A stretch of 64,000 nt of DNA from Botryllus schlosseri. Lineage: Eukaryota. Made by a program: the position numbers and the translations under genes. Every line of letters begins with the position of its first letter. Position 1 is the first letter of the stretch. Below the pieces are notes generated by a model. It worked only from the letters and a program-made list of their open reading frames with translations. It did not search any database and was not told the origin of the DNA. This document shows positions 6,992-28,077 of the stretch, one piece after another. The stretch lies in NCBI GenBank assembly GCA_051294905.1, contig CM119371.1:9984001-10048000 (forward strand), given 5' to 3'.

Positions 6992-7087
6992 ATGAACCGC
7001 AAGCTGTACCTAGTGTGCCTGCTGACATCGTTGATGTTGGCAATATCTGTAGTCGTATTACAGGCGTTCGTGCTCGAGAAACAAACG
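6992..7087 (+). CDS. Intelectin-like exon 1 (signal peptide or signal anchor)
   Basis: ATG at 6992; [32 protein letters not shown]; donor GTAAGT; phase 0. Confidence 0.8.
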
Positions 7088-10000
7088 GTAAGTGGCTATG
7101 TCACCCATCATTTGTACAGTCACTTTAGCGTGATCAATTCACTTGCGAGTAATCCATTCACACTCCACGTAAATGTGCACAGTAAGGTGCATAGTTATTT
7201 GTAATTGCCAGTAGATCTAGTTCCCGATTGCTGTTCTGAATTTTGGTTTGCATCTGAGTTGTCTGAACCAAGACCAATTCTGCTAACGTGAACTCCAAAG
7301 ATATAGGCGTCCAAAATCTGGGAAACACTGTGGCATACGCAGGGGAGCGCGTATTGCCAATGTATTATACTCATCTGTATCATCGGTTCTCTCAATTTTA
7401 TATCCCTATTCGAAAATGCAAAAAGTCTGACGCATCAAATGCATAAAATGTTTGATTGATTGATAGAAATTTGAAATCTATTTTGTTGCATGGTGTCGTA
7501 GTATATATAGTTCATAATCTACTTTGGACTCGATGCAATCCAAAATTGTGCCTGTTTTACAGTGCAGCTAACGGGTTATATCAAACTAAAAGTTGTCTTC
7601 AATACTCCTGACTTGCCAAAGCGATTCGGGTATAAAGTTATCCAAGGTTTCCCTGTTTAGACAATGTATTCGATGTTGGGCGCAGCTGAAGAGCGAACAG
7701 TTAGTTCATGTTTGGACATGAGACAGCTCGGCGTCGTAAACAGCGGCATACATAAAGTGCAGGTGTCAGATGAGAATGTACCAATTGAGGTAATTTTCAT
7801 AACAATATGCCATAATTTCCTTACCAGGACTTCGGAACTTGCTAACCAGATGTAATTTCAAACCCAAGGATATTTCGCCAACAAGTACTTTCGTATACTA
7901 AGCTACATATTCAAGTAGAATATACAGTTTACACTTGTGCGTGATCTCCCGATCTATAAATTGCACATATCCGCGTTTAACAGCGTGCTGATATTGTTGT
8001 GGACTGGACACGCTAATATTAAAATAATAAAACCAACGATGGTCTCTGGCCCCATTGGATGATCAACACAACTTCTAAGGGCGGTCTTCACCACCCAGAT
8101 GTCCTTTCCTTCTACGAGGAATTTCACCGGTACCGTTACATTTTATCGATGCATACGTTTCACACACACACACACACACATACACACACACACACATACA
8201 CACACACACACAAACACACACAAACACACACACACACACACAAACACACACAAGCACACATACTTACACACAAACACACATACACACATACACACATACA
8301 CATACATACACACACACAAACACACACGTTTCGTGTCCCCGTAACGATTGTCGATGGTAATAAAGGTAAGAATCGCTCACACGTACCATATCAAACTAAA
8401 CAAATATTCATTTTGTGAGACGCATGCGGGTCCAAATTCGTATTTCGTCATGGGGAGCAGTATATTTTTATTTGCGGATCGCATTGGTACCTCGAGGATC
8501 ATGTGGCATAGGGTTACCATACGTCCTCCTTTTTCAGGTTTTTGAAAATGTCCTCCGATGACGCCTAAATGTCCTCCATTTTGACAGTTCGTCCTCCTTT
8601 ACAGCTTTTACAGCTAGGATAATGGACAGATTGGACCGAAAATGGGTATAAATGACGCTAAATAGAAAATACGGACGTTTGAGGGGGTAATTCGGGTGTC
8701 GCTTCAAAATGACGACCATTTTATAGGTGAAATTCACTAAATTCAATAAAATGTATTTAAATCGCGAGTCCAACGAAAGTGCTGACCTTTTTTTCCAGTC
8801 CACTCCACATATTTTCCGGCAAAACAGCAAAATCCGCTGATTTCAGAGTTGATCAGCAAACTTTTATGATTTGGTAAAAGTGTCCTTCTTTTCCTATTCC
8901 AAAATATGGTAACCCCGATGTTGCAAGAATAGGATTTTTAGATGCTGAACATTTCTGCGACTGGACATATTATTATCGGAGGCTTTGGTCAACTGGGGTT
9001 GAACATTTCATGCTAACGTTTCATCGTCGTCAATCGATATGGGAGCTCATTTCGCGAAGCCGCAATTTGGTCGAAACCTTATGTGTCCCGGCGCCGAAAC
9101 GCGAGCTCGTAATCGAAAACCAGTTGGTTGCACACAGCGTGTTACGTCTTTAAGCGATATAAAAATTCCTTTCAGCTATGTTAATGAGTACAAGGTAGTA
9201 ATTTCGTCACCAAGTCACAAGGTTTCAAGCCAATCTCACTTTTATAGTCTTGACTTGAGTCAAGTCGAGTCATTTTGAATTGACCACTGAGTCAAGATCG
9301 AGTCCAGGTTGGGGAGCAGAGGTTTGTGTCTGAGTCATTGTGTTATGACCATAGTGTCCAAGTTCAAGTCCTTGTGTTGATTGTTCAGTTTCGTAATAAA
9401 GTCTTCTGAAACCCACTTTTTACAACTCTGCTTTGTGATGACGAATGATTCGCATTCACAATATACAAATTTTACACACTTTTATAAATTTCTGGTCGCA
9501 TTTTCAAGTACCCATACTAATATCTACTCCATCATAAACTGATTTTCATTTATTACGCAATTCTTGGTGTGGTGCAAAAGACCAACAGGTGATAAGCGCC
9601 AAATCTTTCTTTTTAATAAACAACAACAACAACAACCCATACTAATAGACGAAATATTAATTGTGAGGAAACTTTCGCATTCGTCAAATTACATTGAAAT
9701 ATAGGTTCAAGGCGTTCGAGTATAGAGTCAAATGACTTGGTGCATGGCATGTCCAATGACTCACGGACAACTCGAGTCAATACTCGGACTGACTCAAATC
9801 GAGTCGAGTAATTTTCTGCATTTAGAGATGTCTCGAGTCAAGTCGAGTCACCAAAAAAATCGCGACTCGAGTGATACTGATTACAGCCCTGCGTGACACA
9901 CATGAGAACCACAAGAAAGCGTCCGAGAGATAACGTAAAGAATGAAGAAAAGTATCTTATATTTCAGTTGCGCTCGTGATATGATTAACAGACGACTTAT

Positions 10001-13000
10001 TCAGGAAGCAGCACCTTCTCCTAGGAAAGTCGTGACATCTACTCTTTCATATCAATACATCGTTTCCTTTTGCAGGTCTTTTGTGACATGGAAACTGACA
10101 ATGGAGGGTGGACTTTGGTTGCCAGCATCCATGAATCTGATATCAAGAGGAAGTGTACATTTGACGACAGGTGGTCGACCTACGCAAAAAATATTGAAGA
10201 TCACAGAGGTGAACACTGAACATGTTATGCGGACGACAGAAAAAAAGCCATATATATCGTATAAATTTCACTGATTTAATTCAGGGAATTAGACTCATGT
10301 GTATCCATGGTACATGGCAGTCACACAGTTACGATATCTGTAGTTTTGTCGTCGCACTATCACCTCGCGTTGTTCGAGCTGTATGGTCCATTGTCACATG
10401 TTCAGGTGTCAAAATGGCAGGGCTATGGAGTCGGTTCCTTTTACCACCGACACCAACTCGGACACTAGAGTCTAGAGTCTAGACCAGTGGTTCCCAACCT
10501 TTTTGACCTCGCGGCACACTTCGAAAATTAAAAATAGTTCGCGGCACACTAGCACAGTGTTCCGAACTCTTTTGGCTTATACGCACAGGCAACCACCAGA
10601 ATGCGTATATCAGCAACCATAGTTTTACAGAGGTGGTCACTGACTAAATACTGCTACCTTTTCGGAGCACTCAAGTTGGCGTTTCTCTGCTTGAGTTTTC
10701 TTTTATCTCTGCGGACATCTCACAAATACGTCTACGAATGGTATCATTTGACATGGGACTCGTTTTCAATTCTTCCCAAACATTTTTTTACGATTTTTTT
10801 GCAGGCCGGAAGAAGAGCTTTCTCCGTTTCCATGTGAGGTTTTGAATTATCAGCTATTAACTCTGTTACCACATAACTGGCCTGTTGAGATATCGTTCAA
10901 ACTTCAGGTTCAGCTTAATTTCATAAGATTGACTTGACAATGAAGTCTGCCCACTACCGCATTGTCGATGTAATTAACCGTCGCATCGAAGAGTCCATCA
11001 CGATCGCCACTAACAAATACGGAGGTGTATTATACAATATACATGGATGCCAAACGCATTTCCACGCAGATAGTGTAATAGCACCTGTGAGGATAGTATA
11101 CCTCACTTACTCGTAGCCACCCGCAGTTCAATTGTAGTTCCAATAAATCGGGATAATAAACCTCAGCGGAGGGGAAATTTGTAACTGATATAATTTGATC
11201 AACTTTACTTCTCAATTCTCGAATTAATCGCCTGCAACATAATATTGCGCACTGAGCCTTCATTTTAACTGCAGTTCTGGCACGCTACCTAACAATCGAG
11301 ATGTGAATGGCAATGTTGGCAATTCTAATGAGTTCATTTCTCGATGGTGAGAATGCTTTCCTAGGTGTTGGAGGTTTATGTAGGCCCCTACTCGTCCTAC
11401 GATCTGCAAAAGCAGTGTCTTGCATAAAGTGGGCCGTGCTATAAGTTGGCATCTCAGGAATCAAAATATGTAATATCGGCATGGTGTAAAATGATCATCG
11501 ATGACGAAGACATGGCAAGAATACGACTACAAATAGAAACATAAAAAGGTCATCAACCTGCGTCATGTCCCTGTTCTGCCTCCGATTGTGATGGGGGTGA
11601 CAAGTAAAAGGTGAACAGTTCGTCCACATCTCAATATCACGGTCCAATTACCCGAGTTTAGTTATCACCGTCCTAATTGCTACTGATGCTACTATGTGGG
11701 CAAACTAGCATACCACACCCATTGACGGTGGAGGCCCCAGTTTGATTCATGGCAGTGCAGTAGCAAGTAACAAAGCGTTGCAGATTTATTAGATCATCCG
11801 CCCCTATATACGTTGCTGTGCTCAGAACGTCTTTACAATAAAAAGTCCAGAGAAAGACTCAATCCATGACCTAATGGGGATGCCAGATTGAAATACTAGA
11901 TTGAGATACAGTAATTACGGTCGCTTCGGCTTCCTTATATCTGTTCATTGCATCGGATTGTGCATCGCGTGTCTTGATCGGGTAAATTCAATACAAAAAC
12001 CAACAATGACACACTCAAAATTGGGATTTTTGTTATACTTCGACATAGTTTACCACATTTGCTCGCGGCACACCACCGCAGTCCAATTGGCACACTAGTG
12101 TGCCGCGGCACACCGGTTGGGAACCACTGGTCTAGACGATAGACGATAGACGACGTTTTCAATATACCGACTATGGGAATTTTAAATTCAGACTTCGATC
12201 CCTGCTCCGACATCAAACATTTTCTTCGCAGAGCTCCGACTAGGACATTTCCGTACATCATACACTATATTGATGATACAACAGCTATTTTCCACTTTCG
12301 GCCTTCAGATAACAAGTATCATGGTTTTTGTTGTGTCCAGCAAGTTACCATTGGCCGTACTCAGTACTAGACTCTTGGTGGCCGCAGGAATTCTCCATTT
12401 AAATGCTTCCATCGTGAGTGAGCTGTCATACTTAAAGCCGATTAGATGTGAACTATGTATATGAGCAAATCATCTACATACGTGTGTTTCAGGAAAATCG
12501 AACTGGGAGAACTCCATGATATTTGGAGCAGTGAGAAGCTGCTTGCAAGATGACTATAAAAACTATCTTTTTTACAAGTTACGCGTGAGTACCAAAGTAC
12601 ACTGAACCGCATGTGCCACTTATCCTGCTACGATAAAACGTAACCTTCACACCTTGTTCAAAGGCAGGCCTGCTTTCCGAGTATTTATAAGAACTGAACC
12701 ATTTTAGATCGCATCTTAAATTCACGGTGGCATAGCCCTATATGCAGGACCGTAACTGCTGCGCCCCATAGGCTACCCCTCAATTGCGGAGGGAGGTGAG
12801 CTCAAAGGGGGCGTGATTATTTCGTGAATGAACATAAATTATAGACCATATTTTTTTTAAATTTATGCAACTTTAGTCAATTTTTTTTCGCACTACACGC
12901 GATCTATTGTCGCCTAATTTCTTGAATATCGGTTACCGTACCCCAAAGAAAAAATACGCATGATTCATAGAAATGGGCATGTTGTCGTCGTCAATATCGC

Positions 13001-16000
13001 GCCACGATGCACCAAGACATGTTTAATTTTAGGCCATGTAACATGCGACTCCGAGGAGTGTGCCAGAACGATCGGCAGCGGGACAACCTTGACCGAAAAA
13101 GACTGCCATTATGCTGACCGAAAACTTATATATATATACAATACATGTTTTATTCTCCATGGGCGCCTATATATATATATATTTAAGTATACATGTTTAA
13201 TTGGCCATAGGCGCCTAAAGAGCTTGCGCCGAATGTTCATGTCCTGGAACTCTAAAACCCACCTGCCATCTCGCCATCTCGCAGAAAAGAATTAGATGCC
13301 AGTGAAAAAAATATCAATTTGAAATCGTGTGCGTCATTTAGTTCAGTACGTTTGAACGATTTCAATATCTTTCGACATAGCAGACACGAGGTCACGAGAT
13401 AACATGATGTAAGGATGTCATTATACCCACGGTCCGTCCAAATATGTTTAATTAATATTTACGAGGCCTTACATTGTCCAAGACAACACCTCACTCAGCT
13501 TTCACCTTCACAACATATGTTCCAACGTCTGGTATTCAGACATGTTTTTGCCTTATGCGTCAATAATGTGCCACGTCGCCGTTATGAAAAATTGCTCAAG
13601 ATTAGGAGTTTGAAGGGGCACTGCACTCTAAAAATGATATGCTCTCAAATTGAAGGGCAAAACGAAATAAAAATTTTGGCCGCAGCCGTTTTCTTCAGAA
13701 CGCCACCGTAATGGAGCTGCAATTTATTGAAATTTCGATAGCAACTTCACGCTCCAGCAGTCACGCAGAGATCGAACTTTATATAGTTGTCAGCCGATGC
13801 TATGAAGGAAATATGTATAACACGCCTTGTGTCCTAGAGAAATAGAATACACTAGGCCCGACTTTGACATAAATCTCATGACTGAACATCTTCCGTTGAA
13901 CGCGGTATCTAAACCACCTAGGCGTGTACGACATATTTCCTTCCTAACATCGGCAGACAACGATATGAAGTTCGATCTCTGCGTGACTGCTGGCGCGTGA
14001 AGTTGCTATCGAAATTTCAATAAATTGCAGCTCCATTACGGTGGCGTTCTAAAGAAAACTGCTGCGGCCAAAATTTTTATTTCGTTTTGCCCTTCAATTT
14101 GAGAGCACATCATTTTTAGAGTGCAAGGCCCGTTTAAGAGCTGTCAACTGTTATGCATCATGCGATGGGTCCAGGTGTGATGTTCGTTATTATTGTCCAA
14201 TCACTTTCAAGAAAACGGTGGCGGCTAACTAGTTTCAGTTTTCCCGTTTTCTATTGATTGCTCATTAGTTATGTATCGGCTGGGGGCATTGTGACAAAAA
14301 TATGTATCATCGTGATCGATACCGACACTGAATGATAAAAACGAGCTTAGTATGCATATTGCACAATGACTAGAGTATGTTCAAGCAATGAACACGATTG
14401 ACACTTTCAAATTAGCTTAGAAATTGAAAGAAGATACCAGCAGCAGTAATATGGTGACGCCGACATACAGCCTACCGTTTATCGCAATTCAATCGGTACT
14501 ACCGATTCATATAGTATTCGAATGCATGAAATCGATGGTCGGCACCAAATCTATATGGACAGTGTACCCTATTCGTGAACTAGTTTGTAGATGTGATGAA
14601 TGTGTGTATTATATATATTAGCCATATACCAGTTACAATTAAACCAGGGGTCACCAACAGGCGGCCCGCGATGTGGTATTTTGCGGTCCGCGACCTGATC
14701 TGAGATTTCAGAAGAACGCTAAATACATTATTTTAAAAGGCTTGATTCTCAGTTATAAAATGTTACTGTTGTTGTTCAAAATAAGCCATTCTCTCGCGCC
14801 CAACATTACTATTTATCACTTGCTGATACGGCTTCGGCGTTGGTTATAGCATTTCGTGGAGGAAGAATTAGGTGAAATAGGTATATTGAGCCAATGCCGA
14901 GATGCTAAAAAAAACACCTCGGTCTTTGCCATAAGATCAAGCTTTACAAAAATATAGTTTGCTAGCAAGAAGCAACTACCGTGTCTAGCTAACCCTAATA
15001 TCGATTCCTTCGTCGCTGAAAGTGTAGGTAAGTATCGTGCGTAGCTCATAGTTCAAAATAGAATGAATGTGATGATCATGATATTTCTCTTTCCATTTGT
15101 ACTTCGTTATTTAAATATGTTCGCGGGCAAAAGCATTGTACTGACCTAAATATTAAAAAATGCGGTTGTTGTTTAACTGTGTGACCTATTTCATCTCGAT
15201 GTTGAATTTATGCGGTCCGCGGCCTCCATGAAACTTGAAAAGTGGCCCGCGAACAGTTTTGAGCTGGTGACCCCTGAATTAAAAAACTGGATTATATAAT
15301 TTTGATTCTCGCGTGTTTGATGATTCACAGGCATCCAATGTCATGATCTGGCATGTTCCATTCGGACTTTCCATATCTCAGGCAAGAAACGAGACTACAC
15401 TACGATACAGGACGACCAATAACTTTTTGCGGAGCTACGGAGGGAATATGAGAAATCTATTCAATGATTTGAAAATACTCAACCTAGTTAAACGTAGGTC
15501 TAACGTATGTAGTAAGATATGAGAAGAAAATGGATGCTCGATTTGCTCTGATAAGGCAGTTTCTCAGCACATAGTATGCATAATGTAAATACCATGTCGA
15601 GAATAAGGATATATTGGACATTTATTGATTTGATTTCTCGTTACGACATCCTATCAAATTTCTATAACGCTTAAAAACCCACTAAGTTATAAGTTTGACC
15701 CGAAATAATAGTTTCGCTCCACGTCGATTGACTTTATAAATAATAGTAGGGTTACCATATTTTGGAATCGGGAAAGGATGACACTTTTTCTAAATTTTCA
15801 AACTCAGAATTCTGGAGAAAAATCTTCTTCCACTTCGTGGCCGGTTGACTAAATAAAGGTCAACTTTCTCCCTCAGTGCCCAAAATACAGTTTTTTCCTT
15901 CACGCTTACAGGTGGTTGACAAGAAATAGGTCTTCTTCCCGGCTCAGCTCCCGAAAGACCCGCCGGAGCTTTACTTCGGTGCTGATTTACGGTATCTCAG

Positions 16001-19000
16001 TCCAACTTGACAGTAAATTTGACCAAAATTCTCAGAAACGAGGACGAAATTTCGAAAAGGAGGACATTTAGGCGCTCTCGGAGGACATTTTGAAAAACCT
16101 GAAAAAGGAGGACAAATCCTCCTAAAGGAGGACAAATGGTAACCCTACATAAGAGGGCTCTTTAAAAACGTTTTGCTGTTGGATAAACTCTAAGAATTGC
16201 TGGAAAATAATTTGATTAAATCAAGAATGGACGAGGAACCCTAGCTTTGAACGGATTAATCCCTGAACAATATATACACAAAAGTCCTTCAGAGTTCAGA
16301 CCCAATCGGCTATTGTTTGAAATTCAAACTTGAAATAAGCTAGTCTCACATGCCTCGGACGGCATGGTTATATATTTTTCAATTTACCAGCAACAGAAAA
16401 GACTATTCCGCACTTAAGGAGCATAACCGCCTCTCTAATGCGAATAAAACAGGACATCAAAGGGTGGTATGCATACAAGATCGATGCTGGAGATTATACC
16501 ATAAGTGACAGAAAATTTGTCCATGATGATGATAGCAATCGAGTGAGTTTCTTTAAATTCATGATGAACACAACACTGTGGAGCTTATCGCCTTTTTAGG
16601 CCTTGTGCTCCACGACACGAATTTCATAATGTTCAAAGGCCTTTGCTTTTGTATTCTTGGGAACGTCTTTCAATCTCTCTCGCAGTCATTCCTCATTCTC
16701 TCTCGCTCCCATACGTCCCCATCGTAGTCTCTGCGGCCGACTTGCAGCACGGCTCACTTTCAGTCTGGGCTTTCCAATGCACTACCGTAGCAGTGAGGTC
16801 GGCGATGAGGAGCCCAGAGACACCTCCGACTCATAGACATTGGTCAGAACCGGGATTCGAACCCACGTCCATTGGTGTCGCTTCCCAATTTTTTTTATCT
16901 ATAATGCGATATATAATACGCTGAAATCGTGGAATACCAACATGTTGCTTCGCACGGACGTCATATACGATCCTTGTAAGATGTGCTTACGGCTAAAGCG
17001 CTAACACTGGAAAATATCTTCCAAAATCATTGCGTGTATGTCAAATTCGGTGTTACCAAGTAACAGGTACTTCAATTCCCTGCGATGTCCAATCCCGACA
17101 GTCATTCCATTGATGGATCGTTCAACAGAGGAAAATTGCTTATTCAGGTTTTATGCAGATCGATAACAAGAAAAAGTGAAATTCTAAAAAAAAATCCTTT
17201 ACCGACTTTGTGGAGAAGGGTTGTTCAGAAAAAACTGTTTTTTTTCTAATTTAATCGGCTTAGTTGTGAAATCGTCAGGTTACTTAAAAAACGTTGCACA
17301 CCAAGTTTGACTCAATTCCAACCAGTAGAGGCCGAGGTTAGTCAAATTGAAATTTCGGTCATTTTTGAAATAATAGTATTTACGGTGACCAATTTCGTCA
17401 CACGGTCACGATCAAAAATCGTGTTCCTGGTATGCCTGAAGAGGCAGGGATGTCCTTTCTATTTGTTTTTACCTTGACAAGGGCCCATGGTGGAGGTTGG
17501 ATCAAGACATCGCCAATAAACGAGAAAAAGATATAACACGGATTAGCTGGAAATCATTCATTGAAATAGCCACGTTAAAAGGATGGTGACATAATTTTTA
17601 AATAGAGTATTTTGCACACTGAAATTAACGACCACGAAAAGGAAATAGACGGACAAGCTGGTAAAATACGGGTATATATATTTCTCAAGTGATAGTCATA
17701 TCTAGAAGTATTTTTCGTCGGACCAATTTAGATTTCACGAAACCTATCCCAGTTTTGCAGGCATACCGATGTCTCTTTGCCTTAATCCGAAGTTTTTACT
17801 GGTTGCAAAGTCGCCATTCCCAAAATCTCATCCACAGAGACATCAGTTGCATTCCTCAGCAGCTCAGTGTTCGAATATTTCTCTGCTACTTGACATTGAC
17901 TGATCCAGGACGTTAAAAATGATGCCCATTGCAATTGAGAATGGGCTATGCCAATGAATAGTATTTATGAGTTAAAAAGCATTTCTGGTACTTCACATAA
18001 GCATTGATACTAGAGATTTTATGTGCTCGAAACTTTACGACCTTCAAGGAAACTAAATGGTAACCCACTGAGCTTATAAAGCATATTTGTCTTTTTGTGG
18101 TCTTTTAATATTACCCGAACCCCTTTCTTTTCATAGAGTAAGAAAAAGCATTTTTACCACAATATATAAATACAATTAGATGGTATTCACCAAATGTGGA
18201 GGATGAAATGAAGAGAGGACGATGAATTTTGATAGGATTAAGATTTGTCACGATGCCCATTAGCCTTCTAATCCGCCTGTGAGAGTATTATAGCAGTGCC
18301 GCAGAGCAAATGATAGAATATCATATAATATCAAATTGTATCGTGAAGAATTATACATTGGACCGACAAAGAATATAGATATTGACTATCACTTGAGAAA
18401 TATATTTATCCGTATTTTATACGTGCTTATTATTTGTTCATTTTCTTTTCGTAATTTTTAATTTCAGTGTGTAAAGTACTCTATTTGAAAATTATCTAAC
18501 CGTCGTTTATACGTGTCTATATCAATGAAGTTGACTAATTTTCAGCTAATCCATGTCATATCTTTCTTTCGTTTACTGGCAATGTTTCCATCTAAACTCC
18601 ACCATAGGCCCTTGTCAAGATCAGAACAAGTGGAAACACTTCCCTGCCTCTTCGGGAATACCTGGAACACGATTTTGGGTCATCTCGGTGTGACGAAAGT
18701 GGTCACGGTAAATGCTATTATATCAAAAATGACCGAAATTTTAATTTGACTGAGCTCGGCTCCTACTGGTTGCAATCGAGTCAAATTTGGTATGCAAAGG
18801 TTTTTAGGTAACCTGATGATTTGACAATCAAGCCGATGAAATTTGAAAATACAAGTTTTTTTTGAACACCTCTAATGTGGAACCTAGCTTCATGAAAATT
18901 GATTTGTAATATTCCATAGGATGGTAGAATGATAGAAAATGATGATGATAGTTCATACCTGATTTATGGTGGATTTTCACGACCATTGCAAAATTACTAG

Positions 19001-22000
19001 TTGTGTCATCAAACCCCGAATTTCCGAATTTACAATCTGTTGACCGTGAAACAGTAGGGTTACCATATTTTGGAAATCTGAAAAGAAGACACTTTTTCAA
19101 AATATTCAGACTTACAATACCGGAGTGAAATCCGGAAAAATTGTTAATTTACTCCGAGTTTGTAGTTGGTAGTTGGTGGTCTTTCTGGCTCATATCCCGA
19201 AAGAGGCGCCAGACCGTTTCTTGAGTGATGATTTCCTATCTCAGTCCAATTTTACATATATTAAACCAACACTTTCAAAATAGTCAAAAACAAGGACAAA
19301 TCCTCCTGAAAGAGGACGTATGGTAACCCAATGTAACAGAGGCTTTAATTTCAACTTCACATTATCATACAATGATATAATCCATCCAAACACCACGTTC
19401 TACTTGTCAGAATATAACAAAAATGTGGAAAGAAAGTAGTTTGGTTTCAAAAACTCTTAGTAGAAGTGTTCAAAGAAAACATAATCGCGTGAGTAAATGA
19501 TGCATGTAGATAACCCGTGCTTCAGTACTTTCAACCATTAGGTCCGTATACATCGTTACGTAACCTCTTAGCGCATATGTAACGCTGTCGAGGATGGCCT
19601 CATGCTTTAGCGCAGGCACCAATATCAATATTGTAGGCCGTCTCATTTTCTCGACGTTTTTCGTGCCGATTCCTCTCTACGGACTACCTCGGATAAATTG
19701 CACGAAATTGAAGACTTCGTCCAGCAACAATTGAATCCCACTCGGTGAAATTTCATTAATATTCATACTTTGTTGCGCCGATAGCAGACGATATATATAA
19801 ACTAAGATCTTGGTATCTTTCACACTCTATTTAACGTCCACCTGCGAATGAATATAACTAATAAAGTTAGATTCATTCGCAGGTGGACGTTAAATAGAGT
19901 GTGAAAGCTACCAAGATCTTACGTTTATTTATATTCCTGTTATTCATAATTTCTGAATGCATTTAATCAAGTACAATTATCTGTACTGTCCTAAATTTTA
20001 CTCCACGCGATAGTATGACAATGCCGTACGATTCGATTAGCGAATTCCAACGTTGATTTGGAGTCTGAAAATCGCTGTCAAATTTTCAATTTGATGGGAT
20101 TTAATTGATGTAAGATATCATGAACATTTTCCGTAGTTGCCGCATCGAAAGGTTTGCAGGGATGCCGCTATTTGCGAAGGTGAAGCTCAAAATATAAATA
20201 TAAACAAAAAATATTTATAATAGGTCTCATTCATCAGCAGCCCGTATGGATACGTGCGTTACGGCAAGGTCCACAGGTAATGATTATCATTTTCGATATC
20301 ATAAAGCAGACCAATTTATCGCGAGAGCAACAATAGCAGGTGGTAGACCGTATTATTAGACATAATATTATGAATAAAACCATTTTATCGGCCCTTCTCG
20401 CAAATCAAGTTTTTTACTCAACGCAGGTAATCAAATAAAGAGAGGTCAAATATGAAACACGTTCCTAACAATGGAAATGGGAATACGTAATTAAATATAT
20501 GAATCAGGTATGAGTCCGAACATGTTTGCGGCAATGTTGAAAAGTTGAATAGCCAGTACTCTGGGCCACATGAACAAGTTTTCTTCCACTCTCTATCACT
20601 TTGGAACAAGCCAATATCTAGTGATCGTTTCAATTTCCTGCACTGCTACCAGAGTTGTAAACAGGTAACGGGTTCCCGAATCACAAATCAATTATACTTG
20701 TATATTTTGAATTGGAGTCAAGGAGAGTCATTGTCTAGTCACCAGCGAGTCAAGTCCGAGTCCAAGCCATTGTATCCACGGTTCATTTCCTAATTCTATC
20801 CTGTTTAACTCACATTTGTGCAACTCTGTTCGGGAGATATTGAATGCCTCCCATTAATTGACCACACTTAACACGGTTTCGTGCCCTATTTCACAAACAC
20901 CAGTCATGATAGACGAAATACCAACAATGTGATAGCTGACATTATTATTCGAATGAAAACGAAACGCCTGTATTGGCCGTGCGGGTTTCGAGTCATATGA
21001 CGTGTTCGAGTCATGCGCAATGACTCAAGTACAAGTTGAGTCAATACACAAATCGCCTCAAGTCAAGTCGAGTCATTTCCCATTATTTTGAAAAAGTCAA
21101 GTCACCAAAATATCACGACTCGAGTCGAGTCATGACTCAAGACATTACAGCCTTGGTGCTGACACAGTGGTAACTGTAAGTTGGTAATTAATTTCAAAGA
21201 GCGCCGGGCTCAAAGTGATGGCATATAATCGTATGGAGACGGAATGCATTTTGTGGATTTCCTCAGCGTCGTCAAGAGCAATAAGTAAAGAATTTCCGAC
21301 CTAAAAAATCTAACCACACTGATCAAATCGATTTCCACGCTAGGGGACCAAATTTCCAAAGTTTGGACATCGTTTACTTGAAGATAAAATCGACTATTAC
21401 CGGCTCAGACAGGTTGCAAAATGTGGATTTTATTTGGAATTGTGATAATAATATTCGATGGGGAAGATGTTAAGGATGGATAACTATCGGTGTTTAGTAA
21501 CGTCGTAGTTTTTTTTCATTAACCGAGGAGCCGTGATATTGTGGTCAGCTATTGTCATACCACCGTGTCCACGTCCCAATTTGTCGTCAATCAGATTTTT
21601 ACTTTTTTTAGTTGCTTTGGTCAGCCGGGTAATCGGATTAAATTAATCTGCTCAATCTCCAGTGATTTTGCATTTACCAGTAGACACGGTACGAACAAAA
21701 TTGCTTCGTTGCCCACTGACACTGATTAGATTTGACATCTGACTGTTGATTACAACGAGCATAATACTCATGAATGTTTCGAAGTTCCAATTTAGTTGTT
21801 GTCGTTGTTGTTGTTGTTGTTGTTGTTTGTGGCATTCATGATGTTTATCGAATGTAATTGTCATTTACACCAGGGCGATATTATTTACTATGGACTCCGT
21901 AGCTGCCGACTTGAAGCACGACTCTCTTCTATTTTTATAAGTGACCGCTTACGCGGGTCAGATGACAAGAAGGAGCCAAGATAAACTTACCACAATTAGA

Positions 22001-25000
22001 AAGAGATTTAGGAATCGACATCGGCCGGACTCGAACCCGCAACCTATTGGAGGTGCAACTGTGCAGCATATTATCTACGCGTAACTATTGGTCTGTATAC
22101 GGGAAGATAGCGCAGTGCGGGGGTGGCCAACCTTCGGCCGTAGAAGGAGATCTTGAAATTTTCTTCGTGCATCGCAATTTTAAGATAGTAGCGACCTTTG
22201 TATTCTAAGCTCCACAGTAAAGATGCGGACAGCAGAGGAAAATGATGCGCCCCATATAGAAATACCAAATTGGAATCGTGTGCTTCTCACAAAATAAATG
22301 AGTTTATGGTACGTTTGGGCGATTGCAATATATTTCCACAATACCGACAACTCTGGTAGGAGGTCAAGAAATAAAAGCATGCAACATATTGACTAATAGC
22401 AACCTGCCCATCCGAAGATGCATCATCACCATTTTTAACTTGTCCTAAATCTTCAAAAACGCTGCCTCCATCCACTCTACTGGTGAGTCCGATCACACGG
22501 GCTGAGAAACGATAAATATAATACGAACTTCATGAGTGAAATATATTAAATTTTCGCGCTTCGCACGACCATAGCGAATCCCAGTAATTGCTCAGAATAT
22601 GACCACTCGCGATTTCGGTGCGTCTACTAAAGCGATATGAAAGAGTAGATTAGTCCGCAGTTCACCTGAAATGGACATGGACAATTGAACAGTTTAACAT
22701 CGGTATTTGGCGTCCAGTTAGTTCATCACGCCTATGCCCTGGAATGCGGCTGTAGGCTACATAAGTGATCGAAATGCCACCGTGAATAGCAGAAAGGTTG
22801 ACCACCCGTGGCGTAATGATATGATCCCTCTACACTATCTTGTGACTAAAGACCAATAGTTCTGCGTAGATAAGATGCTCAGACTGTTGAAAGAAAGACA
22901 ATTTGAAAACTTTAATAGGTAACTGACCAACCCTTGGAGATACACTACCCGCTGTGCTATACTCGAATTCAAATGTAATAGAAGCTATTGTACAGTTCTT
23001 CTTGAAATCGGCCATTTACAGACATGTAGCCTATCTGTATTCGCGATAATATCAGCTCTATATTTATTCCCATTATAAGATATGGACAAGTCCTCGCAGT
23101 CACCGAAGCTAATACGCCATTCACCGCTCTTGCGATTATTCGAAATGATAATCGTCACTCTCCTGACTATGGGATTCGAGTAAGGTATAGTGGATTCTAC
23201 TAAAGAAAAAAAACGAATGTTAGTATAATCTTCAGGTGCGATCATACACACGACGTGAAAATATTTTGGTCGGTGAACTGGAAAATACGGTGTCAACTGG
23301 AAACTTCCATTTGCAATATCACGCGAAACAGTTTTCACATCCGTCAGCGATAACAGAATGTCAACTTTACTTTTATATCTCAAACGGAAAGGTATATGAA
23401 GTTCAGAGAGTTCTTGAATCTTCTTGGCAAATGTTTAGAGGATAAATAATAAAAGTAATATATTGGTATTGTAATATTTTTGGCTAAAATGATTTGGATT
23501 TCTTTGATGTAGTTAATGCATCCAACATTTCATGTTCATTTCCGAAGTTTCAGTTTAATAACGGCTTTCGTTCTGATGACAAAGATTGAGGTGGAACTCA
23601 ACAGCAATGTGCGCAATTGCGCTGTGCTGACACGGTCTCTGCTCACATAAAATCTAAGCTGCGCACAAAATATCCGAAGTTATGTTTTTTTTTTTAGTAA
23701 TTGCGCACTGTTCTCCAATGGACTGCGCAGTGACTCAGTGCGTGCACGCAGACTCGTCAAAATTAGACGAAACATTGTCCAACGGTATCCCGTATTTAAT
23801 TTATTTATACCGAGCATTGAGGTTATCTATATGAGAGGCTACTTATATTTTACTGACAACAACGTCGTTGGGTACTAATCTGGCATCTAGGAGTCAGACG
23901 TATATGCTTCGTTGTGGTAAGATATGAAAACGCAACCGCAGAAAACATGCGTTACATAGAGGACAATCAAATTATATATCCGAAACATAATAGCCAATCG
24001 AGACCAAATTCAACCAGTAGGCCATGTGATCGCGTCTAGCTGAACCGCGACTAATTTTCTGAAAAACTTGATCGCCGACACAGGTTTACATATCAAAAAG
24101 GTGCAGTATAGGAGAATCACGCCGTTTCAAATAAACCGTGCCTTGTCTACGGACGAACTTCATAAGAGAATTATCGCGACAGCGTTAAACGGTCGTGTAC
24201 AATTATGCATCTTATAGGATTGGAGATCTCGTTTGCCAACATCGGTGACCATACGCTATGGGTACAATGAAGTAAGCTTCACGTTACATGGAGTACCACG
24301 ACGCGTCATGTTCGGTTACATGTTGCTATCAAGGTGATGAACAAGCTTCCCCATAACTAATCAATGTTGACAACCAAATTCTCTATACAATCAGAACTGC
24401 TGGACATAATTACACATTGACAGATTTAAATGGAATCGCATCATCTATAATTACAACTGTGTCGGATTATCCAAATTTGATGGATGGTGAGATATTGATT
24501 TTTTTTTCTTTCCAACTATGCCAGTGGCTCTCAACCGGGGGTTGATTTCAGGACTCGCATAAACAGATGGCCGTCTGAGATGAAATATTCTACTGTGCAA
24601 CCTCATTTTAATTGCCAAATTGCCAGTAACCTGCTGATACGAACATATTGTTGTTTAGAGATGTTTTTTTTTGGTGTTTTGAAAAAAAAAGTTGTTTGAA
24701 AATATTCATTTTACCCTGTAATATACCTACATGACCGCTATTACAGAATAACCTCAAGATGATCCTCTATAAATAATGATGACCAGTCGACTAGACAGGA
24801 CGTTATGTGTCTATTAAAAATCTGTTTTTCACTTATGGTACCATATATGTTGCAATCATACTCAAGGGTGTCGTCGGAAGCGTTACGCGTCATTATTACA
24901 TTCGCCAGCACTACCTATTTTTGCGGAAATGGATTTTCAGCACTGATTCATATCAAATCGACGGCGCGTATTTTCAATAAATTTTAAGAATTGCAGCTAC

Positions 25001-27364
25001 ATAATTAGCTTTTAATAATAAAAGTTTTCACAAATACAGCATAAATAGTATGATGTTATTTTCTGGAGAACTACGATTTAATTGCTCCCTCTAATTGCTC
25101 AAATGCAACAAGACGAACTTTTTTCTTGCTACATTTAATTCGTGTTTTTCTTTACATGTAACCAACGTGGTGTCAAGTTATTTCAACTTACTTCCAGTAG
25201 TTTTGACGGATTTCCATCGTTTTCAAGACTGTAATCGTCATAAAAATCAGGCCATGCATAGGCCTACGATTACGGTAACGAGATATAGTTTTGTACTTCA
25301 CCTATTTATTCATAATTGATCACTCTTGTCCTAATTTATGAATTTGTCAACTCGATTTCCCGGTACATGTATGACGGATGACCCCTTAGCGCAAGGGACC
25401 TTCTGAAGCTATATTTAACTGTATTGATTTCAAGAGTATCGTTTCTATACTTTATGGTGAAGTAATTGTGTCATTGTCTGGAAGTAGCTATTTGTAAGTT
25501 ATTTCACTTGAAATATTTATCAACGGGCAGCGTGAAGGACTATACGTTATAAACCGTTTAAAATAGTAACTAAGTTACTGTTGTTCAATGATTATCGTAC
25601 ATTTTTCACCAATTTCTATGTTTCGGGAATGATACTAAAACGTATCAAATGACGCCAGATCTCGTAGTATTGATGCTGATGACATTTCGTTGATATGTAG
25701 AATTTCATTAACTGCATTTTAACCCAATATAGTCAACGAAATTGTGTTGTTGTAGAATGGATGGACCCAAATCCATTCATAGTGCCAGTAATATTCGATA
25801 AGGGAAATGAAGAAACCGTGTTGGAACACACGCCTGTCAAAATGAAACCGTTCGTCAAACCTGGAAACCTGCAATTTGGAGCGTTAAACATTGATGGATA
25901 TCCCAACGCCATATGCCCAGGTGCAAGGTAAGTGAATGTTGCTTTTAAAAACAAATGTTTTTCCATCTTTTGTTATGGAGAAGAAGCTCATCGTCTCACT
26001 GTATCGGCACGGTGTACGTCAACTCATAGTATCAAATTGATTGCCGAAGTCAACGATTATTCTAATGTATAAGATCCTAGTGGATTTACACGTGACTTCA
26101 CATGATATTTGAGCAAACTTGTGTTCCATTCTGATAAAAACAAAGTAAATATTGGAAAGAGGGTAATGTATAGAGAAGAGAGGATATATAGCATACCCAT
26201 GTAAAAACTTAATATATATACATGTAAATGAATTGTGAATCACGAGTTTGACGAATTAAATCGTAGTTCAGAGAGTACATTTATCATCTATGCAGTTTGT
26301 ATCAGATAATAGCTGCGACCAATGCCAGAGTTCAAGAATACCAGAGTAATGCTTTTGTGGTATTTGTAGGTATGCTGAAAGCACGATTGCACAATCTCAC
26401 ACCAATAAGTCATCTCAAGTCAATTAGAGCTTATTCGAATAAGAAGTACTAAATTTCATTTGAATGCTTTAAGACTTTTAACGCGACTTGAGTGAAGATA
26501 CTAGAAACGTAATGTGGATTTTTCTTCATCCATCCATCCATCCACCCATGCAAATTCAGGTCCATTAAATGAAAACTAACAGAAGACAATATATAAATGT
26601 CATGGGAGGAAAATGAATGACTGTCATGTGTTTATAGCCGATGCTGATACCACAGATCATGGTCCGGTAATCTTGAACGGTGGCTAGTATTTATTCAGAA
26701 GAATCTTCCTATCTATTAACTTCAATGAGTACAAGCTCGAAGATTATCTGATTGCGCACAACATAATGATCCACAGTCGTGGTCGGTCATACACAATACA
26801 TATACTTGATAATGGAGCGATGCGTTATCTTGTAATTCGTGCAAATTACGTGGAAATTATACGGCGAGGACGCGCGTTTGTTCCACCTATTCAATATTGA
26901 TTCCGAAGTGACGATGATATTGAATATGGTGGGGTAGCTACTGCAATGGAGCTGATACAGAAGCGTGGGCTTGCTAGCACTGTCATACTTTGTATGCTTA
27001 AAACACCACATAACTGTCGTACGCCTCTCGATGTTTCAGCGTAAACACTACTTCTCCCGAATATTTGTGCGTCGGCGGGATTTCGAATGACATTGCTGAG
27101 TTTGGAACGTGTGGAGATTTTGCAGGTCGGTGTATTATAATCCAACGTATATGCTGCGTACATAAAATTTCATCATGTTTTCAAATTTATTTGGTAGGGT
27201 GGCAGGGAGTTTTAAAATCGACCGCCTATGGAGGTTTGCTGACATTGGGCATCCGAGAAATATCCGAATTAAAATGCAATATTTTAAACTCAGGTTATGA
27301 ATACATGGACGGATGGGAGCACTCGACGGATTTATCGTCTACTCTTCTGATATTCTACCGATAA
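6992..27364 (+). CDS. ITLN: Intelectin-like lectin gene (fibrinogen-like N-terminus plus intelectin domain with a large internal insertion); 15 coding exons, ~548 aa
   Basis: Exons joined at GT-AG sites with consistent phases give one open frame: 6992-7087, 7661-7789, 10076-10208, 12493-12584, 15331-15493 (alternative donor 15511), 16391-16542, 20224-20276, 23080-23179, 23236-23391, 24218-24333, 24395-24486, 25756-25927, 27040-27125, 27198-27233, 27294-27364. Intelectin motifs: [68 protein letters not shown] and C-terminal LLIFYR*. The symbol denotes the family, not orthology. Confidence 0.88.
7661..7789 (+). CDS. Intelectin-like exon 2
   Basis: Acceptor ccctgtttag; [43 protein letters not shown], the start of a fibrinogen-related domain; donor GTAATT. 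Confidence 0.82.
8161..8327. repeat. Imperfect (CA)n microsatellite
   Basis: Directly visible CA run with TA/AA interruptions; it explains the spurious His/Thr and Val/Cys ORFs here. Confidence 0.97.
8509..8917. mobile_element. hAT-type MITE (TAGGGTTACCATA family)
   Basis: TIR TAGGGTTACCATA / TATGGTAACCCCG; TSD ATGTGGCA / ATGTTGCA; subterminal GTCCTC repeats. Confidence 0.75.
9193..9891. mobile_element. MITE with GAGTCA/TGACTC subterminal repeats
   Basis: Clusters of (C)GAGTCA motifs at both ends; related copy at ~20690-21153; boundaries approximate. Confidence 0.55.
10076..10208 (+). CDS. Intelectin-like exon 3
   Basis: Acceptor tttccttttgcag; [44 protein letters not shown]; donor GTGAAC. 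Confidence 0.92.
10485..12129 (-). mobile_element. Non-autonomous hAT (Buster/Charlie) element with transposase remnant
   Basis: TIR CAGTGGTTCCCAACC; perfect TSD GTCTAGAC; the minus strand near 10690-10855 reads [18 protein letters not shown]...[16 protein letters not shown], a ZBED5/Buster-type transposase segment. Confidence 0.85.
12493..12584 (+). CDS. Intelectin-like exon 4
   Basis: Acceptor tgtttcag; [31 protein letters not shown]; donor GTGAGT. Confidence 0.92.
12940..13480 (+). repeat. Interspersed repeat also present at ~59590-60070
   Basis: Shared colinear blocks such as GCGCCACG..GCACCAAGACAT and GGCCATGTAACATGCGACTCC..GTGTGCCAGAACGATC. Confidence 0.6.
13614..14133. mobile_element. 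Palindromic MITE with ~215-bp TIRs, TTAA-type target (Kolobok/piggyBac-like)
   Basis: 13614-13828 is the reverse complement of ~13920-14133; flanks TTGA / TTAA. Confidence 0.75.
14645..15276. mobile_element. hAT (Buster) MITE
   Basis: TIR CAGGGGTCACCA; TSD AATTAAAC / AATTAAAA; GCGG(C/T)CCGCG subterminal motifs. Confidence 0.8.
15331..15493 (+). CDS. Intelectin-like exon 5 (3' end at 15493 or 15511)
   Basis: Acceptor attcacag; [44 protein letters not shown]; two phase-1 donors (GTAGGT, GTAAGA). Confidence 0.85.
15747..16147. mobile_element. hAT-type MITE (TAGGGTTACCATA family)
   Basis: TAGGGTTACCAT ... ATGGTAACCCTA; GAGGAC repeats. Confidence 0.75.
16391..16542 (+). CDS. Intelectin-like exon 6 (inserted domain)
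   Basis: Acceptor aatttaccag; [50 protein letters not shown]; donor GTGAGT; phases fit both neighbours. Confidence 0.75.
16583..16881 (-). mobile_element. tRNA-derived SINE, copy B
   Basis: GGGATTCGAACCC at ~16852 is the reverse complement of a Pol III B-box; homologous to 4910-5215. Confidence 0.65.
17216..18874. mobile_element. Old DNA transposon with ~520-bp diverged TIRs (Tc1/mariner-like ends)
   Basis: 17216-17740 aligns by eye with the reverse complement of 18342-18874; right end ...TTTTTGAACACCTCTA. Confidence 0.7.
19055..19331. mobile_element. hAT-type MITE (TAGGGTTACCATA family)
   Basis: TIRs plus TSD TGAAACAG / TGTAACAG. Confidence 0.75.
19803..19921. repeat. Near-perfect hairpin (57-bp arms, 5-nt loop)
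   Basis: 19803-19859 versus 19865-19921 in reverse complement, with 2 mismatches. Confidence 0.9.
20224..20276 (+). CDS. Intelectin-like exon 7 (inserted domain)
   Basis: Acceptor ttataatag; [17 protein letters not shown]; donor GTAATG; supplies the required phase 0 to 2 bridge. Confidence 0.68.
21795..22080 (-). mobile_element. tRNA-derived SINE with a (CAA)n tail
   Basis: (TTG)n at 21795-21826; GGACTCGAACCCGCAACCT reversed B-box/tRNA-like head at ~22027-22046. Confidence 0.65.
23080..23179 (+). CDS. Intelectin-like exon 8 (inserted domain)
   Basis: Acceptor ttcccattataag; [33 protein letters not shown]; donor GTAAGG. Confidence 0.72.
23236..23391 (+). CDS. Intelectin-like exon 9 (inserted domain)
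   Basis: Acceptor atcttcag; [52 protein letters not shown]; donor GTATAT. Confidence 0.75.
24218..24333 (+). CDS. Intelectin-like exon 10 (inserted domain)
   Basis: Acceptor atcttatag; [38 protein letters not shown]; donor GTGATG. Confidence 0.75.
24395..24486 (+). CDS. Intelectin-like exon 11 (end of inserted domain)
   Basis: Acceptor ctctatacaatcag; [30 protein letters not shown]; donor GTGAGA. Confidence 0.7.
25756..25927 (+). CDS. Intelectin-like exon 12
   Basis: Acceptor tgttgttgtag; [56 protein letters not shown]; donor GTAAGT. Confidence 0.88.
27040..27125 (+). CDS. Intelectin-like exon 13
   Basis: Acceptor atgtttcag; [28 protein letters not shown]; donor GTCGGT. Confidence 0.88.
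27198..27364 (+). CDS. Intelectin-like terminal exon(s); probable 60-nt intron at 27234-27293
   Basis: [12 protein letters not shown] ... [22 protein letters not shown]; stop TAA at 27362-27364 after the intelectin-type LLxFYR terminus. Confidence 0.82.
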
Positions 27365-28077
27365 TTGTTCGCATTCATCATCCTATTTGAAACGTATGCC
27401 ACACTCGCTCGTTTTCTCCTATAGCCGTTTCTACATTTGACATTGAGCAGGGATGGCAAGTTATGATAAGAATAATATTACATGCAATTTTGGGCGACCG
27501 GCAATTGGTCAGATGTGGCATAAATCATTCTAGCGTTATTTATTTGGGATAATATTCAGAAGTTTGCGTTCGAGCATGAACTTGATAGTTTTACCCTGTG
27601 AATCGTTGAGTATAATGCTAGAAAGGGCTGATAATCTAGCAACACTGTGGGACTTTCAGCTTACTACCAACCTTGTATTACGGTGGCAGTGAATTGTGAA
27701 CTTAATCATCAAACTAGGATGGACCTTGCGTCGTCGAAAAGTATACTGTTGTTTGAGATCTCTGTTTAAAATATCACTCGGTATTGCTTTGGAAAACAAA
27801 ATAACTCGTTTCTGTCAGCGCTACACTGTTTGACCGGGAATCGGGCAAAAGCGAGATCGTGAGCTTATATTCCGCGCGTTGACCGAGTTAGCTCTAAACC
27901 TGATCCAACCACAGATGAGATTTAATTTCCGTTGGGAAATGACGTTTTTGTATGGGCTACAAAGAACCTCTCAAAAGATTTCCTTGGCTGCTCCGCAATA
28001 ACGGGTGAATTAGATGAAAACCAATACAAAATGATATAGATCATATGAAATATTACAACAGAGCTACTATATAAAAC

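Follow-up and report, generated by a model that had tools for sequence, protein, structure and literature searches.

A Botryllus schlosseri intelectin gene with a putative second module nested inside its lectin domain

A gene of the ascidian Botryllus schlosseri probably encodes an intact intelectin in which a loop of the lectin domain (about positions 181-193 of human ITLN1, 4wmq) accommodates a complete module of 222 residues, the product being either anchored in the membrane or secreted. The gene lies in a window of 64,000 nucleotides, the whole stretch of DNA that was analyzed (assembly GCA_051294905.1, contig CM119371.1, positions 9,984,001 to 10,048,000 of the forward strand), whose own numbering is used below. 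Intelectins count as compact lectins with a single domain, which recognize microbial sugars. Their sugar site consists of calcium-coordinating residues and residues that bind exocyclic diols, and their lectin domain is contiguous, with about 280 to 310 residues. In the protein encoded here that domain is interrupted by 222 residues, and it is therefore a variant architecture rather than a canonical member.

The gene model is that of a tunicate-type intelectin (X-type lectin). It comprises 13 exons on the plus strand, from 6992 to 27364 (Table 1), and gives a product of 573 amino acids. All 13 exons are open and bounded by AG and GT sites, there are no stops across the 573 codons, and the protein aligns to Styela clava XP_039258436.1 over 552 columns (36% identity, E 1.8e-115) without a frameshift. 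The two ends of the model are less firm. The start within exon 1, whose donor reads ACG/GTAAGT, is uncertain, as the same open reading frame has a further in-frame ATG 36 codons before it. An upstream exon for a cytoplasmic tail of the S. clava type was sought, with insignificant matches only (E 5-40). The acceptor of the last exon is also uncertain, and an alternative at about 27290 would make the protein 31 residues shorter. The initial annotation had put the protein at about 548 amino acids; the difference from the present figure sits in this uncertain last intron. Its suggestion of a secreted or type II-anchored product agrees with the hydrophobic stretch of exon 1 and with the tail and membrane span of full-length S. 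clava relatives.

Table 1. Exons of the proposed intelectin gene, in window positions
Feature	Position	Strand	Remarks
Exon 1	6992..7087	+	Start codon and 24-residue hydrophobic stretch (signal peptide or type II anchor)
Exon 2	7661..7789	+	Fibrinogen-like part begins (10 letters); acceptor TAG at 7658-7660
Exon 3	10076..10208	+	Fibrinogen/intelectin superfamily motif (16 letters); tblastn to S. clava proteins
Exon 4	12493..12584	+	KSNWEN..DDYKN
Exon 5	15331..15511	+	Segment of 23 letters; phase-1 end at A/GTAAGA
Module exon 1	16391..16542	+	152 nt; N-terminal helix and a stretch of 16 letters; profile positions 1-41
Module exon 2	23030..23179	+	150 nt; segment of 17 letters; acceptor TAG 23027-23029; profile positions ~42-88
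Module exon 3	23236..23391	+	156 nt; segment of 25 letters; best conserved of the module exons; profile positions 83-140
Module exon 4	24218..24333	+	116 nt; segment of 21 letters; profile positions 140-184
Module exon 5	24395..24486	+	92 nt; C-terminal helix (15 letters); phase-1 end at G/GTGAGA
Intelectin exon directly after module	25756..25927	+	Segment of 26 letters; exon 12 of the initial annotation
Intelectin exon	27040..27125	+	Segment of 25 letters
Last exon	27198..27364	+	Ends LLIFYR and stop codon

What identifies the flanks of the module as intelectin? The open reading frame at 15283-15519, which holds exon 5, aligns to solved intelectins (E 1.1e-7 to 2.1e-5 across ITLN1 and XEEL, with XEEL 4wmo at 1.1e-7) and covers positions 132-181 of the human ITLN1 chain 4wmq. 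The reading frame at 25701-25928 aligns to positions 193-248 of the same chain; weak when taken alone (E 0.015-0.017), this match is collinear with that of exon 5. As the 4wmq matches end at 181 and resume at 193, about 11 residues separate the two segments in solved intelectins, much as the initial annotation had said in speaking of a short linker. Exon 3 scores 25.2 bits against Pfam PF00147 (cut-off 22, E 1.6e-5), and the N-terminal fibrinogen-related segment, with its motif of 12 letters, is present. A word-indexed search of longer proteins with the exon 5 reading frame gave 19 candidates, none of them significant. Exon 5 also has an alternative phase-1 donor at 15493/15494.

The module is encoded between these flanks, where the initial annotation had described an insert of about 220 amino acids in six exons at 16391-24486. 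The limits proved exact, as did the reading frame and the phase, and the five motifs quoted from the insert are all present on the plus strand; the exons, however, number five, with 666 nucleotides or 222 codons. Each of them is bounded by an AG acceptor and a GT donor. The block is free of internal stops and has neither a start nor a stop codon of its own. It is in phase 1 both on entry from exon 5 and on exit into 25756-25927, thereby fitting the flanking exons exactly. Is a further exon missing? No candidate for a sixth short exon was found between 16543 and 23029, and none is needed, since the TAG acceptor of module exon 2 gives a phase-0 exon that fills the profile. The intron that would separate the flanking intelectin exons, about 10 kb long, is rich in repeats. 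An antisense open reading frame of 149 codons overlaps two of the module exons.

The completeness of the module was judged against a profile of 208 positions, built solely from 25 copies in 12 proteins of Styela, Phallusia, and Clavelina. The joined five-exon block matches positions 1-206 with 118 bits (E 2.6e-38), a score that is, by this measure, far beyond chance. The unjoined plus-strand reading frames match the same profile collinearly, with E values of 0.008, 6e-4, 3e-12, and 2.5e-5 and a weak fifth of 8.9. In an alignment of nine module copies from four species (A3), 14 columns are invariant, and 12 of these are kept in the window module. In the other two, Y is replaced by I and E by Q, the latter in a column that holds R in the paralogs of this genome. 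Judged by its sequence, then, the insert is a complete member of an extracellular domain family that has no name. Pfam searches with the single window reading frames, the whole relatives, and nine module copies (the last at E <= 5) gave nothing consistent on the module, in keeping with the initial annotation, which could name no domain family for the insert. A sequence search of the PDB with a Phallusia protein of eight copies yielded chance matches only (E > 1), and the ESM Atlas search returned no usable match. Two candidate members were discarded: the rodent protein P0003, whose match to the exon 3 profile (E 5e-6) is taken as false in that it scores -1.5 against the full module profile, and P0002, a fragment with a single module exon. 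The family has so far been seen in ascidian proteins only. Among the matches listed, no description of an insert in an intelectin was found in the literature on ascidian intelectins, and the intelectin passages seen of PMC10980280 and PMC9953650 do not mention one.

The module is not peculiar to this gene. Searching the B. schlosseri genome with module exon 3 returned 10 other matches at E <= 10, half of them at E > 0.1; for 6 of these 10, an intelectin exon follows 2-8 kb downstream on the same strand. Eight regions were examined, and in the six that have both (A-F) the module exons sit between intelectin exons in the same order, with 35-50% residue identity to the window gene per exon. All seven paralog copies of module exon 3 end in K followed by GT. 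At least six paralogous intelectin genes carry the module at the same site and with the same exon order. Together with the complete, in-frame block and its conserved columns, these genes uphold the earlier picture of a chimeric intelectin whose lectin domain encloses a second module. Module-free paralogs were also sought, through equivalents of exon 5 up to 1.5 kb from other intelectin loci within 3-kb stretches, and no such equivalent was found there. C1:10.427 Mb has a copy of a 3' fragment of the window gene (25054 to about 27550) and of no other part of it, which indicates local duplication turnover.

Nor is the module confined to intelectins. Outside them it forms tandem arrays, which is a new observation. 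Phallusia mammillata CAB3263223.1 has eight copies, and Clavelina lepadiformis carries three copies with two CUB domains in XP_076803186.1, four copies in XP_076823361.1, and two copies with VWD, C8, TIL, Sushi, and Trypsin domains in CAK8674588.1; none of these proteins has an intelectin part.

Is the module always included in the protein? The block being phase 1-1, skipping all five exons through a 15511-25756 joint would give an ordinary intelectin of 351 residues (SNVC-K-WMDPNPF), in frame and collinear with the solved structures. The module exons could in that case be an alternative cassette, with the ordinary form made mainly or in addition and the module included in some cells or conditions. 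The S. clava proteins P0011 (isoform X2 of its gene) and P0012, in which the middle of one module copy is absent (profile about 87-137), show a gap that looks like exon skipping inside the module. However, the 25 listed members of the 9 clusters that were consulted include no module-free form, a 289-amino-acid "intelectin-1-like" record is a truncated prediction ending within the module, and at least six paralogs have kept the module exons intact and conserved, so that their inclusion must matter. A cassette seems unlikely. Even less should be expected of the idea that the block lies outside the intelectin altogether, being made up of frames open by chance, of transposon debris, or of a separate gene within the 10-kb intron. 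The intron is repeat rich, a direct joint of exon 5 to exon 11 makes a normal intelectin, and the 149-codon antisense frame runs over two of the exons, yet that frame has no family match in Pfam and no significant match to the module profile (E 9.5). The block, by comparison, matches the profile collinearly and over its full length, lacks start and stop codons of its own, and has phases that suit the flanks; six paralogs and the proteins of S. clava show the same arrangement. This idea is exceedingly improbable, and chance reading frames in particular are ruled out by the paralog arrangement, the collinear match, and the exact phases.

Transcripts bear on whether the gene is in use. Four RNA runs with the same species label, of which 6-13% each was sampled and for which the tissue is not stated, were compared with 9900-27450. 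All 2,871 of the 2,871 reads placed there fit only partly and are repeat derived, and depth was 0 to 0.29 in the bins holding the exons at 22792-27450. No exon-exon joints were seen in these runs over 9900-27450, a stretch without an expressed control gene, so that silence, tissue specificity, and strain divergence are inseparable here. A tRNA scan of a read pile-up at 16.7-16.9 kb found none. Zero read depth on the exons is what would be expected of a silent or decaying copy, a recent family member whose exons are intact merely for want of time to decay, and the duplicated 3' fragment does show turnover nearby. Against this stand the small share of each run sampled and the unstated tissue, the 13 open exons with AG and GT sites, the 573 codons without a stop, the S. 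clava alignment free of frameshifts, and the 12 of 14 invariant module columns that are kept. Moreover, the identity of 35-50% per exon to the paralogs means that the window gene is old. A silent copy is thus improbable, more so than a cassette, and an intact gene with a nested module remains the preferred reading.

What might the module look like? A predicted model of a Clavelina copy, 23% identical to that of the window (pLDDT 83, pTM 0.87), is a beta-sandwich of about 11 strands flanked by an N-terminal and a C-terminal helix. Its best match in VIA-align is the GH65 structure 7fe3_A (Z 9.8, rmsd 4.0 A, 177 residues aligned), and the top of the 50 entries listed consists of N- or C-terminal beta-sandwich domains of glycoside hydrolases, glycan phosphorylases, and polysaccharide lyases, with aldose epimerases lower down. 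The matches span Z 9.8-7.0, 135-201 of 239 residues, and rmsd 3.1-4.9 A, to be read against the Z of 7-8 that is the tool's typical best for models without a clear relative. Foldseek gave seven matches at E <= 0.001 to the same enzyme classes, except for 7q1u_B, where the matched chain is a fusion protein. The fold class of the top matches is, we take it, the galactose-mutarotase-like beta-supersandwich. With modest confidence, the modeled module most resembles supersandwich domains of this kind from carbohydrate-active enzymes, and carbohydrate would be the most likely ligand on the strength of the fold class. A model of a full-length S. clava homolog (9-row alignment) had a mean pLDDT of 42, with the lectin part below 50, and is unusable for the packing of the two halves.

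How could such an arrangement have come about? The five exons sit in what would otherwise be one phase-1 intron, into which the module may have been placed by exon shuffling as a phase 1-1 exon set. A nested domain needs both chain ends on one side, and the two terminal helices, if they pack together, would bring this about. The module would provide a further binding surface, with carbohydrate as its most likely ligand to go by the supersandwich fold, and the protein could serve as a pattern-recognition lectin or agglutinin with two sites. A broader proposal, possible though doubtful, is that the module binds glycans independently, as a second such domain from a family without a name, so far seen in ascidians only, which phase 1-1 exon shuffling carried into mucin-like and CUB proteins as well as the intelectin loop, where it would have created membrane-anchored receptors with two specificities. 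We know of no such two-specificity, membrane-anchored design among vertebrate intelectins.

The interest of the gene lies in several points. (i) A whole folded domain would be held inside a lectin domain, in an arrangement kept in a multigene subfamily of at least two ascidian genera. (ii) The window gene would be a clean natural case of domain insertion by way of an intron. (iii) An extracellular module of about 210 residues, widely used by ascidians and without a Pfam family, is brought to light; to our knowledge, nobody appears to have studied it. (iv) Ascidians have innate immunity only, and if the module binds glycans, two-site receptors would exist in animals that rely on it alone.

Compared with the canonical intelectins (human ITLN1 4WMQ, Xenopus XEEL 4WMO, and the lamprey serum lectin 7E1E), the window protein is alike in its flanking exons, which align to these chains, and in its fibrinogen-like start (13 letters), which passes the PF00147 cut-off. 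It differs in having the 222-residue module in place of the roughly 11 residues of the solved chains, and a long hydrophobic, anchor-like stretch at the N terminus. The C-terminal LLIFYR is an ending shared with the S. clava relatives. These are predicted proteins of LOC120334985 (XP_039258436.1 and XP_039258435.1), LOC120335080, LOC120347880, LOC120347606, and others, in which intelectin and module, in one or two copies, are joined at the same site; the initial annotation had rightly mentioned similar inserts in uncharacterized proteins of marine invertebrates. In the full-length S. clava forms, which are type II, a cytoplasmic tail precedes a membrane span, and some of the genes have two tandem modules at the site (P0001, P0010), whereas the window gene has one. 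All are automatic predictions named "uncharacterized," with no function described. Closer to hand, the paralogs at C1:10.68 and 10.74 Mb have the same module exons between the same intelectin exons, again 35-50% identical per exon.

The best structural likeness of the module model is to supersandwich domains, such as the N-domain of GH65 7FE3, the GH94 phosphorylases, the C-domain of heparinase III, and the aldose 1-epimerases. The module is smaller than these, has two terminal helices, and at 4-12% identity bears no relation to them at the level of sequence. The stand-alone arrays are made of the same module of about 208 residues, their full-length copies scoring 145-234 bits against the family profile, though these copies are only 19-24% identical to that of the window and follow one another along the chain without nesting. 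A DGGxDMYDxGN motif and a GADGxG stretch are kept in the stand-alone copies, while in the copies embedded in intelectins they are lost or degenerate.

The closest protein relatives of the window (G000:C1:9984001-10048000 within a 495-Mb assembly) are ascidian. Two of its forward-strand ORFs resemble solved intelectins. The first, at 15283-15519 (+), matches XEEL (4wmo) with an E value of 1.1e-7 and human ITLN1 (4wmq) at chain positions 132-181; the second, at 25701-25928 (+), matches 4wmq positions 193-248 (E 0.017). Segments that lie about 11 residues apart in solved intelectins are therefore separated by 10 kb of DNA in this gene. Both the donor at 15511/15512 and the acceptor at 25755/25756 are in phase 1, and a direct splice between them would yield normal intelectin sequence. 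What lies between them? Five exons, 666 nt in total, which encode a module of exactly 222 codons free of stops, in a block that is entered and left in phase 1.

Exons of the module nested in the lectin domain
Feature	Position	Strand	Splice signals
Module exon 1	16391-16542	+	AG acceptor, GT donor
Module exon 2	23030-23179	+	AG acceptor, GT donor
Module exon 3	23236-23391	+	AG acceptor, GT donor
Module exon 4	24218-24333	+	AG acceptor, GT donor
Module exon 5	24395-24486	+	AG acceptor, GT donor

The initial annotation had proposed a six-exon insert; its outer limits agree exactly with the reconstruction, while its exon count must be lowered by one. The 6.5-kb gap between module exons 1 and 2 holds no candidate for a sixth short exon, and none is needed, because the TAG at 23027-23029 acts as an acceptor in phase 0, and the exon that begins at 23030 covers the matching part of the family profile. 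An antisense ORF of 149 codons (22985-23434, -) crosses module exons 2 and 3 and has no family hit; it probably exists as a by-product of the coding sequence on the sense strand. The complete gene model has 13 exons (6992-27364) and encodes 573 residues, or 351 if the module is left out; the start codon and the placement of the last intron are uncertain. Intron 2 contains a (CA)n-rich microsatellite of 167 bp (8161-8327). Just 5' of exon 1, at 6733-6850, two neighbouring ORFs in different frames faintly resemble, in collinear order (E about 40), the cytoplasmic tail found in membrane-anchored intelectins of Styela clava; the likeness may be due to chance or to a tail exon that has decayed.

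Are these exons real, or are they chance frames in a long intron, the reading first favoured in this analysis? Evidence comes first from the same genome, in which module exon 3 has 10 further matches at E <= 10 (half of them weaker than E 0.1) and the intelectin exon 3' of the module has 19. For six of the 10 module matches, an intelectin match follows 2-8 kb downstream on the same strand. Eight regions around such matches were fetched; six of them (A-F) hold both parts, with module exons placed between intelectin exons in an unchanged order and at 35-50% residue identity. In each of the seven paralog copies, module exon 3 ends with a K codon, and GT follows. Region H (C17) carries an isolated copy of this exon. 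Region G, 418 kb downstream (C1:10.427 Mb; G000:C1:10426883-10430210, loci L043-L045), copies only the 3' end of the window gene, from 25054 to about 27550: the end of the long intron, the first intelectin exon 3' of the module, and the last exons. The copy is recent and alike at the DNA level, matching in all reading frames, with exon translations 88-93% identical; it is uninformative on the module. Neither upstream exons nor module exons were found in the 20 kb fetched upstream of it, so region G is probably a gene fragment produced by segmental duplication.

Further evidence comes from other ascidians. Module exon 3 was made into a profile from eight loci, and a search of 1.84 billion representative proteins with it gave seven hits at E <= 0.001. 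Three are intelectin-like proteins of S. clava, with two modules (P0001), one module (P0004), and a partial record (P0005). The others are a protein from Phallusia mammillata that carries eight modules in tandem (P0006), one from Clavelina lepadiformis that combines three modules with two CUB domains (P0007), a single-exon fragment (P0002), and a rodent protein (P0003) that fails the full module profile and was taken as false. Further S. clava proteins of this intelectin-plus-module build came from word-indexed searches, as did Clavelina proteins with four modules and another with two modules beside VWD, C8, TIL, Sushi, and trypsin domains. A module profile drawn solely from 12 foreign proteins (25 full or partial copies) matches the forward-strand ORFs of the window collinearly, before any joining, and matches the joined insert over positions 1-206 (118 bits, E 2.6e-38). 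Of the 14 columns that do not vary among nine aligned copies, the window module retains 12; it is 19-34% identical to those copies. Against S. clava XP_039258436.1, the 573-residue model gives an alignment of 552 columns (36% identity, E 1.8e-115). The paralogs, the foreign-protein profile, and the full-length alignment contradict the reading as chance frames.

Four bulk RNA runs under the same species label were read to 6-13% each; the reads placed on this stretch, which has no positive control gene, include no exon-exon joints. All 2871 placed reads fit partially, and all fall on intronic repeats. Skipping of the module exons is possible. Two S. clava predictions (P0011 and P0012) lack profile positions of about 87-137, the equivalent of module exon 3, in the first of their two module copies, which may reflect alternative splicing within the module or mistakes in annotation.

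The introns hold repeats of several kinds. One in the long intron (16600-16900) is heavily covered by RNA reads, at depths that reach about 58x per strand in run X7, and many of these reads run on into sequence that is unrelated. This repeat is dispersed and expressed, and may be SINE-like; ARAGORN found no tRNA in it. Reads also connect 11365-11451 with 21881-22015 on opposite strands (up to 54 in run X10), which points to a repeat, inverted here, that is transcribed from copies elsewhere, and not to a feature of the intelectin gene. The introns flanking the first module exon contain a short element in two direct copies (15742-16155 and 19050-19339, 77-81% alike), which also matches several paralog regions, and inverted arms of about 420 nt (17229-17646 and 18440-18862, 81-84% complementary). 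Both look like MITE-like transposon debris.

What might the module be? Pfam has nothing for it, either in the 1914-residue eight-copy protein or in nine separate copies taken to E <= 5, and neither a PDB sequence search nor the ESM Atlas returned a match. For the S. clava homolog, modelling at full length gave confidence too low for use (pLDDT 42). AlphaFold2 gave a confident model of the first Clavelina module copy from a nine-row alignment (pLDDT 83, pTM 0.87), with a predicted helix at 8-24, about eleven strands, and a second helix at 215-232. Foldseek hits to the PDB were weak (best 7fe3_A, E 1.6e-4, TM 0.42); of the seven that reach E <= 0.001, six fall on carbohydrate-active enzymes and one (7q1u_B) on a fusion-protein chain. 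Independently, VIA-align superposed 177 residues on 7fe3_A (Z 9.8, rmsd 4.0 A); such scores exceed the background given for the tool by a modest margin. At the top of its 50 listed entries stand N- or C-terminal beta-sandwich domains from glycoside hydrolases, glycan phosphorylases, and polysaccharide lyases; aldose epimerases follow lower down. These domains belong to the galactose-mutarotase-like supersandwich fold, the likely fold class of the module. The apparent link to carbohydrate is a lead.

The window protein is most likely an intelectin, surface-anchored or secreted, that carries the module on a loop of its lectin domain. The terminal helices, if packed side by side, would bring the chain ends together. 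The phase 1-1 boundaries are consistent with exon shuffling of a mobile extracellular module, as is its tandem doubling at the same site in S. clava (P0001 and P0010). Most economically, the module would provide a second binding surface, possibly for glycans, and the protein could then act in two-site recognition or as a cross-linking lectin.

How does this compare with what is known? Public databases name the S. clava proteins that combine intelectin and module only "uncharacterized," and the literature searched on ascidian and tunicate intelectins contained no description of the insert. Intelectin expression is reported in the S. clava endostyle, in passages that do not discuss architecture (PMC10980280, PMC9953650). 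New here are the occurrence of the module outside intelectins, as tandem arrays, in three ascidian genera, and a confident model of its fold with a likely fold class.
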